NCBI RefSeq assembly: GCF_003790525.1
Contig: NZ_CP033635.1
Origin: Escherichia coli
GTDB lineage: Bacteria; Pseudomonadota; Gammaproteobacteria; Enterobacterales; Enterobacteriaceae
Reading direction: 5' to 3' (one strand)
DNA length: 64,000 nucleotides
Positions 48,205 through 48,486 of this stretch are shown piece after piece. Under the pieces are notes generated by a model that worked only from the letters and a program-made list of their open reading frames with translations, was not told the origin of the DNA and did not search any database. The translations under genes and the position numbers were made by a program. Each line of letters begins with the position of its first letter. The stretch's first letter is position 1.

Positions 48205-48224
48205 CACTGTATATAAACACAGTA
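48205..48224. promoter_or_regulatory. LexA (SOS) box upstream of the dinI-like gene
   Basis: caCTGTatataaacACAGta matches CTGT-N8-ACAG, 14 bp before the start codon. Confidence 0.55.
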
Positions 48225-48237
48225 TAGAGGGACTTTT

Positions 48238-48486
48238 ATGCGTATTGAGATCTGTATCGCTAAAGAAAAATTCAGCAAAATGCCAAAAGGCTCTGTACCT
48301 GCTCTACAACAGGAAATGTCTCGCCGTATCAGAAAACGATATGACGATGTGGAGGTTATAGTAAAATCCGCCAGTAATGACGGACTGACCATTTTAAGAG
48401 CCGTAGATAAAGAAAACGCTCAGAAGTTCATACAGGAAACGCTGCAGGAAGTCTGGGAAACTGCTGATGACTGGTTTTTTCACTAA
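48238..48486 (+). CDS. DinI-family protein (prophage-borne)
   Basis: 82 aa, [14 protein letters not shown]...[16 protein letters not shown], resembles DinI. Confidence 0.8.

Follow-up and report, generated by a model that had tools for sequence, protein, structure and literature searches.

At one end of a prophage of Escherichia coli lies a short reading frame preceded by LexA boxes, and the question raised by this locus is whether the prophage brings to its host a RecA modulator of its own under LexA control, and how such a gene would act on the SOS response and on the prophage itself. The locus was studied in a window of 64 kb, this being the whole stretch of DNA that was analysed. A previous, sequence-only reading of it had described an 82-aa reading frame of the DinI family, carried by a prophage and following one LexA box. 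That observation is confirmed by the present analysis and its interpretation is supported; LexA-dependent expression and RecA binding are predicted for this gene. The locus is very probably an SOS module made up of one gene, located at the attR end of a lambda-like prophage that interrupts yecE, its product being a DinI paralogue predicted to bind the groove of the RecA filament.

Results

The gene and its protein

The gene is located at 48238..48486 on the plus strand and comprises an ATG start and 82 codons plus the stop, exactly as had been claimed. A Shine-Dalgarno motif, GAGGG, was recognized by direct reading of the sequence at 48227..48231 (+), 6 nt 5' of the ATG. Membership of the DinI family, for which a profile search had been named as the test, was borne out: the protein matches Pfam PF06183 (DinI) over profile positions 1-63 of 63 with an E of 2.3e-19 and 69.9 bits, the gathering cut-off being 24.2 bits, and PHROG 189, 'RecA filament binding protein DinI', with an E of 2.8e-27. 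A sequence search of the PDB matched DinI alone (1GHH and 7YWA, E 3.4e-13). The AF2 (AlphaFold) model, built on a shallow alignment of 11 sequences, presents a pLDDT of 77, a pTM of 0.66 and the order beta-alpha-beta-beta-alpha, with strands at residues 2-8, 39-45 and 51-54, helices at 19-31, 59-74 and 76-80, and one short extra helix at 9-14. The sole significant PDB matches of this model in Foldseek were RecA-bound DinI (7YWA, TM 0.77/0.81) and free DinI (1GHH, TM 0.74/0.75). By Pfam, PHROGs, the PDB sequence search and the predicted fold, the 82-aa protein is a member of the DinI family.

A comparison with host dinI had been proposed as a check, and its outcome points to a paralogue. Chromosomal DinI of K-12 (b1061; 1GHH, 7YWA) comprises 81 aa and aligns end to end with the prophage protein at about 46-50% identity. 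The two have the family and the predicted fold in common and share the N-terminal MRIE..IAK and the C-terminal helix LQE.WE.ADDWF; relative to DinI, the prophage protein has gained two residues close to position 10 and lost two in the loop that follows helix 1, and two indels of one residue each lie in the vicinity of its C-terminal helix. The net charge is 0 in the prophage protein and -5 in DinI, whereas the C-terminal helix has a charge of -4 in both, the extra lysines and arginines of the prophage protein being located in the N-terminal half and the first helix.

The residues of DinI that contact RecA were identified by cryo-EM and mutagenesis by Gao et al. (PMC9926225): L13, L21, W71, W77 and F78 hold loop L2 of RecA, and the acidic residues E24, E69 and D76 face a basic patch of RecA. 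These align to M15, L23, W73, W79, F80, E26, E71 and D78 of the prophage protein, where all the contact positions are kept, seven of the eight with an identical residue and the remaining one with a conservative change (L-to-M). Against the NCBIfam DinI equivalog model (NF007893) the prophage protein scored 71.3 bits, under the cut-off of 111, and K-12 DinI scored 178. By this score the prophage protein is therefore classed as a paralogue, and no equivalog, of chromosomal DinI, in agreement with its RefSeq name, 'DinI-like family protein'. The genomic setting differs as well, K-12 dinI being part of the core genome and the dinI-like gene being prophage-borne.

Promoter and LexA operators

The promoter scan identified a perfect -35 hexamer, TTGACA, at 48173..48178 (+) and a -10 element, TAAAAAT, at 48196..48202 (+), with 10/12 matches; the -10 can be read as TAAAAA at spacer 17 or as AAAAAT (ending at 48202) at spacer 18. 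Box 1, CACTGTTTATCTATACAGTT, located at 48177..48196 (+), is a CTGT-N8-ACAG match with an approximate heterology index (HI) of 4.87; it agrees with the E. coli LexA consensus, TACTGTATATATATACAGTA, at 16/20 positions and fills the spacer between -35 and -10. Box 2, CACTGTATATAAACACAGTA, is located at 48205..48224 (+), with box 1 lying 28 bp 5' of it; it agrees with the consensus at 17/20 positions and has the best LexA-matrix score of the window (approximate HI 3.26). This second box starts three bases past the -10, over the expected transcription start, and its last base is 13 nt before the dinI-like ATG. Box 2 is the one that had been noticed earlier, as a single box at 14 bp from the start codon: the box itself stands, its distance is corrected to 13 nt, and box 1 had been overlooked.

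At the level of sequence, what is expected of a member of the E. coli SOS regulon is found in this promoter, namely near-consensus LexA operators, two in number and both overlapping the promoter. K-12 dinI is LexA-controlled and has one strong box, confirmed in the K-12 record, whereas the prophage gene, for which the operators likewise predict LexA control, has two. In Salmonella a second, very weak box is listed for dinI (PMC8072944).

The motif CTGT-N8-ACAG was observed four times in the 64 kb, against 0.96 expected, and two of these four occurrences are boxes 1 and 2. A heterology-index matrix was also scanned over both strands of the whole 64 kb; it was compiled for this analysis from 27-28 LexA sites of E. 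coli and is not the published matrix, so its values are approximate. The yebG site was held out of its training set and the ruvAB site was included. Box 2 ranked first, the host yebG box (27375-27394, minus strand, approximate HI 4.81) second, box 1 third and the host ruvAB box (42636-42655, minus strand, approximate HI 6.88) fourth. The fifth-ranked site had an HI of 11.6, and among the best sites of 30 shuffles the median HI was 11.4 and the lowest 7.2; the top four sites of the window are far above chance. The identities of yebG and ruvA were confirmed with Pfam, and the yebG box is located just 5' of the yebG start codon. The rank of yebG is a held-out check, and that of ruvAB is a consistency check only, since this site belonged to the training set.

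Location within the prophage

The sequence up to 47975 is E. coli chromosome and comprises aspS, yecD and the first 96 nt of yecE. This 5' remnant of the host gene (47880..47975, plus strand) is 98% identical to nt 1-96 of K-12 yecE; the likeness stops at 47975 and the remainder of yecE is absent from the window, and therefore the dinI-like gene lies inside the inserted element. Its attribution to a prophage, made earlier from the letters, holds with its position beyond the yecE junction and with the presence of homologues at the ends of sequenced phage genomes. The remnant is also annotated by RefSeq, as a partial CDS, in strain TUM1886, where a sister prophage occupies the same site and is 98.5% identical over 47850-49400. 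This sister prophage is annotated as a complete lambda-like element, from int and xis through to the dinI-like gene. Its repressor is CI-like, with HTH and Peptidase_S24 domains, and therefore of the RecA-filament-dependent, self-cleaving type; the repressor type is read from the TUM1886 sister, the immunity region of the window prophage being located beyond the window. At the opposite end of the TUM1886 prophage, int overlaps the start of the restored yecE reading frame. The yecE gene is a recurrent integration site, and the phage records include Stx2_12E129_yecE and PPyecE_EH1910.

The phage DNA from the junction to the dinI promoter (47976..48172, plus strand) holds a cluster of ATGCCCCA repeats in the same orientation at 48092-48151 (+), directly 5' of the dinI -35. 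The cluster comprises three exact copies, the only ones in the 64 kb, and two near copies, TTGCCCCA and GTGTCCCA. GCCCCA repeats of a similar kind also precede the dinI homologues of VT1-Sakai and BP-4795, and the integrase of the TUM1886 sister prophage carries an Arm-DNA-bind_2 domain. As a candidate assignment, the ATGCCCCA repeats probably represent arm-type sites for the integrase within the P' arm of attR. The segment 47976..48172 shows 97-99% identity to its counterparts in TUM1886 and phage PhiR49_2, and is unrelated in phages with other integration modules.

The tail fibre, tail fibre assembly, J, tail assembly and tape-measure genes extend from 51402 to at least 62589, all on the minus strand, and the orientation of the dinI-like gene is opposite to the tail operon, as had been described. 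The J-like central tail fibre protein (53721-57626, minus strand, 1301 aa) matches PHROG 31 (central tail fibre J) with residues 1-1169; its C-terminal part matches other tail-fibre PHROG families too. Between the tail genes and dinI is the gene of a YadA-anchor (Eib-like) adhesin of 538 aa (49386-51002, minus strand), and between the adhesin gene and dinI that of a 151-aa protein with a sigma-70 region 4-like HTH (48869-49324, minus strand), which gave no match in the PHROG search and which may regulate the adhesin. Within the adhesin gene, at 49808-50364, a unit of 99 bp (33 aa) is repeated in tandem 5.6 times, almost perfectly. P-EibC of ECOR-9 is the nearest phage record for the dinI region. 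The dinI-like gene is the last gene of the prophage, located at the attR end and converging on the cargo and tail genes.

Downstream of the gene, no plus-strand ORF of at least 20 aa (ATG, GTG or TTG start) was found in 48487-48868. A candidate intrinsic terminator was identified at 48554..48591 (+), formed by a hairpin at 48554-48580 (9-bp stem, 9-nt loop), 68 nt past the dinI stop, and the U-rich tail UUCUGAUAUUU. The hairpin is present in the MFE and centroid folds of 48484-48610, and the fold z-score of -2.5 is that of this entire 127-nt stretch. The terminator scan 3' of dinI gave no match, its loop limit being 8 nt and the hairpin loop 9 nt. The gene appears monocistronic because the plus strand is free of ORFs of this size before 48869 and the hairpin is followed by a U-rich stretch; a co-transcribed downstream gene, either an antirepressor of the Gifsy type or the YkgJ-like H0002 of VT1-Sakai, was rejected for the lack of such an ORF. 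An Rfam search of 47800-49500, with E up to 1, returned just one meaningless match, to Xist. Two hydrophobic mini-ORFs of 31 and 25 aa (48662-48757 and 48802-48879, minus strand) are located 3' of the HTH gene and converge on dinI; as candidate SOS-linked toxins they were dropped, being conserved solely in the near-identical TUM1886 locus.

Distribution and conservation

For the coding sequence plus promoter, comparison of DNA identified homologues in 102 phage records and comparison of proteins in 134; most of these belong to Stx-converting or other lambdoid phages of E. coli, and some to phages of Klebsiella, Salmonella, Yersinia and Citrobacter. Among 5426 complete E. coli genomes, 2076 contain homologues, in up to 8 places per genome. 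The homologous gene is again located at the phage genome end in nine relatives. The dN/dS of the prophage dinI against nine homologues was 0.06-0.25 and therefore indicates purifying selection.

The 80 bp 5' of the ATG were aligned for the window and nine prophage or phage homologues. TTGA-A of the -35 and CTGTA...ACAG of box 2 are invariant in the window and 9/9 homologues, box 1 is conserved in 9/10 sequences (the exception is BP-4795, without the CAG), AAAAAT of the -10 is invariant with its initial T present in 9/10 sequences, and a purine-rich GAGGG/GGAGG is kept in all the aligned homologues. Similarity breaks off abruptly 5' of the -35, unless the integration module is shared.

Two types of promoter were distinguished. 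Type A, with two strong boxes, comprises the window, TUM1886, PhiR49_2, mEp460, cdtI and PhiR12_1 (approximate HI 4.9 and 3.3 in the window), and type B, with a moderate proximal and a weak distal box, comprises VT1-Sakai, Stx2, PhiR5_1 and BP-4795 (approximate HI 6.3-7.9 and 10-12). These two types combine mosaically with two coding-sequence types. The 66-bp promoter/operator of the window shows 91-95% identity to those of mEp460, cdtI, PhiR49_2 and PhiR12_1, whereas the coding sequence is only 70-80% identical with dS >1, and therefore either selection on the operators or a recent exchange of the regulatory module is suggested. In mEp460 (mEp460_4F5, 1-667) int and dinI are oriented alike and int extends up to the dinI -35, so that int transcription would continue directly into dinI there.

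Comparison with known systems

The arrangement is already known, having been annotated in VT1-Sakai and tested experimentally in the Gifsy prophages of Salmonella. The counterparts in E. coli phages are H0001 of VT1-Sakai (AP000400) and the attR-end genes of BP-4795, mEp460, cdtI, Stx2 and PhiR, with products of 82 aa that are 63-84% identical to the one in the window. As in the window, these genes are the last by the attachment site, point inward to tail-fibre and cargo genes, and have 13 nt between the end of a LexA box and the ATG. Ahead of the DinI homologue H0001, the VT1-Sakai record carries features labelled 'putative promoter' and 'putative SOS box', the latter exactly at the position of box 2. 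This annotation names one box whereas the window has two, and it proposes co-transcription with the small gene H0002, which is absent in the window; the Sakai and Stx promoters are of type B and that of the window is of type A. The papers found on function or expression of dinI in E. coli prophages offer annotations and speculation, and no direct test of the attR-end genes was found among them; papers on Stx phages treat dinI as cargo, and one of them speculates on a limit on induction (PMC8456039). The 'loss of lexA and dinI' described in a preprint for irradiated O157 was set aside, as chromosomal loci are meant.

The dinI homologues of Gifsy-1, -2 and -3 are, like the window gene, prophage-borne with a LexA box near the ATG, and are more distant from it than the homologues of E. 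coli phages. The box before the three genes was described by Lemire et al., a tagged Gifsy-2 DinI homologue accumulates upon mitomycin C, and the Gifsy-2 operon led by dinI includes a prophage-inducing antirepressor (PMC3121763). The Salmonella SOS survey lists one box for each of the three genes and a nalidixic acid induction of 4.6- to 23-fold (PMC8072944). Non-polar deletion of the dinI homologue in Gifsy-1 or Gifsy-3 produced no significant change in induction (PMC3121763). Tum of coliphage 186, as described in the same paper, is another case of DinI-like sequence in a LexA-controlled phage gene (PMC3121763).

Alternative explanations

In Gifsy, dinI heads an operon with an antirepressor and irsA (dinI-gfoA/gftA-irsA), and Tum of 186, a protein of 146 aa, is reported to be an antirepressor fused to a DinI-like half, the antirepressor activity residing in the other half (PMC3121763). 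The gene of the window could by analogy be a mere leader of an SOS antirepressor operon, or part of a Tum-like fusion, the key product then being a small prophage-inducing antirepressor. PHROG 189 is in line with a fusion, as its profile has 151 positions, the 82-aa protein aligns to positions 71-148 only and the family thus includes longer proteins. Such a module was nevertheless rejected as very unlikely. The window gene stands alone, with no antirepressor ORF immediately 3' of it in 48487-48868 and the U-rich-tailed hairpin at this side; its product is the DinI part alone, with no N-terminal antirepressor half or extension of any kind; and the CI-like Peptidase_S24 repressor of the sister prophage is cleavable and needs no antirepressor, whereas the Gifsy repressors are non-cleavable. 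The location also differs, the window gene being at the attR end and Gifsy dinI in the early region, 1.3 kb downstream of the replication genes.

Another proposal is that the DinI fold has been re-targeted, acting through its acidic helix as a DNA mimic against some other DNA-binding protein instead of RecA, with a host defence or repair enzyme or a protein of a competitor phage as suggested targets. DinI was included in a set of DNA mimics with effects on antiphage defence (preprint, PMC13192584), and the score under the DinI equivalog cut-off, the 46-50% identity and the changed net charge would suit a change of partner. With the RecA-contact residues intact at 8/8 positions, this mimic is possible but disfavoured, and is considered improbable; the charge of the C-terminal helix is that of DinI, the predicted fold superposes on RecA-bound DinI, and LexA control suits a partner of the RecA filament. 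Purifying selection together with intact regulatory signals led to the rejection, as extremely unlikely, of a dead gene, which would be decaying and silent at the border of a defective prophage, with LexA boxes as relics. Prophage ends often harbour gene remnants, some homologues from phage records cover residues 11-71 or 11-80 only, and the CAG of box 1 has been lost in BP-4795; the window gene, however, has a full-length intact frame with the low dN/dS given above, a perfect -35, intact operators and ribosome-binding site, and a regulatory region better conserved than synonymous sites, and its homologues are widespread in E. coli genomes and present in induced, sequenced phages.

Discussion

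Proposed mechanism

The reading preferred here is the single-gene SOS module that encodes a RecA-groove binder. In an undamaged lysogen, LexA dimers would occupy both near-consensus operators and exclude RNA polymerase. Upon DNA damage, RecA filaments would lead to the self-cleavage of LexA and the dinI-like promoter would open; the 82-aa DinI paralogue would be translated from a short leader with the GAGGG ribosome-binding site, and transcription would probably end at the hairpin at 48554-48580. Like chromosomal DinI, the paralogue would bind in the RecA-filament groove, with RecA loop L2 (F203) entering a pocket formed by M15, L23, W73, W79 and F80 and with E26, E71 and D78 facing the basic patch of RecA. 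LexA binding, damage induction and RecA binding are thus predicted from operators and residues of this gene and protein. The affinity for RecA or the mode of binding could be unlike those of DinI, because the NCBIfam cut-off was missed and the net charge is 0 against -5.

LexA, UmuD and lambda CI use the same groove elements of the RecA filament (PMC9926225). The extra copy would likely raise the dose of DinI in the cell, the groove being common to LexA, UmuD and lambda-type CI. At a low level of the paralogue RecA filaments would be stabilised, and at a high level competition with UmuD and with S24-type phage repressors would be expected, so that the paralogue would adjust SOS mutagenesis as well as the threshold or the timing at which the prophage is induced. 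Host DinI stabilises filaments, and at high concentration it is reported to inhibit RecA-ssDNA binding and to stall SOS (Galkin et al. 2011, cited in PMC13192584). The direction of the effect on prophage induction is the most conjectural point of the whole scheme. In the work of Yasuda et al. in 1998 and 2001, cleavage of UmuD is reported to be inhibited by DinI more readily than that of LexA. Since the Gifsy-1 and Gifsy-3 deletions were without significant effect on induction, any influence on the prophage may be slight or depend on conditions.

A more specific version, an 'induction brake', supposes that the two strong operators silence the paralogue until LexA is deeply depleted and that it then appears late and abruptly as a competitor for the groove; this version is considered rather doubtful. 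If it were true, the paralogue would block cleavage of S24-type phage repressors, and the copies of a polylysogen (up to 8 per genome) would add up, so that prophages would influence each other's induction threshold. Expression of dinI could also be coupled to excision by int read-through or by Int binding, because the promoter abuts the putative arm sites and int of mEp460 ends at the -35.

Significance

The gene of the window offers little novelty, being one more copy of a very common and widely annotated accessory gene of lambdoid prophages. A modest addition is the existence of two forms of its regulatory module, one with two strong operators and the other with a moderate and a weak one, which are exchanged by recombination independently of the coding sequence. 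Prophages of the lambdoid group, Shiga-toxin phages among them, are predicted to carry their own LexA-controlled binder of the RecA filament, and to our knowledge the benefit to the phage of a prophage-encoded DinI has never been demonstrated. In EHEC, the release of toxin and the spread of phages rely on repressor cleavage driven by RecA, and for this reason a dose-dependent RecA modulator, with as many as 8 copies in a genome, could affect the readiness with which EHEC phages are induced by antibiotics.
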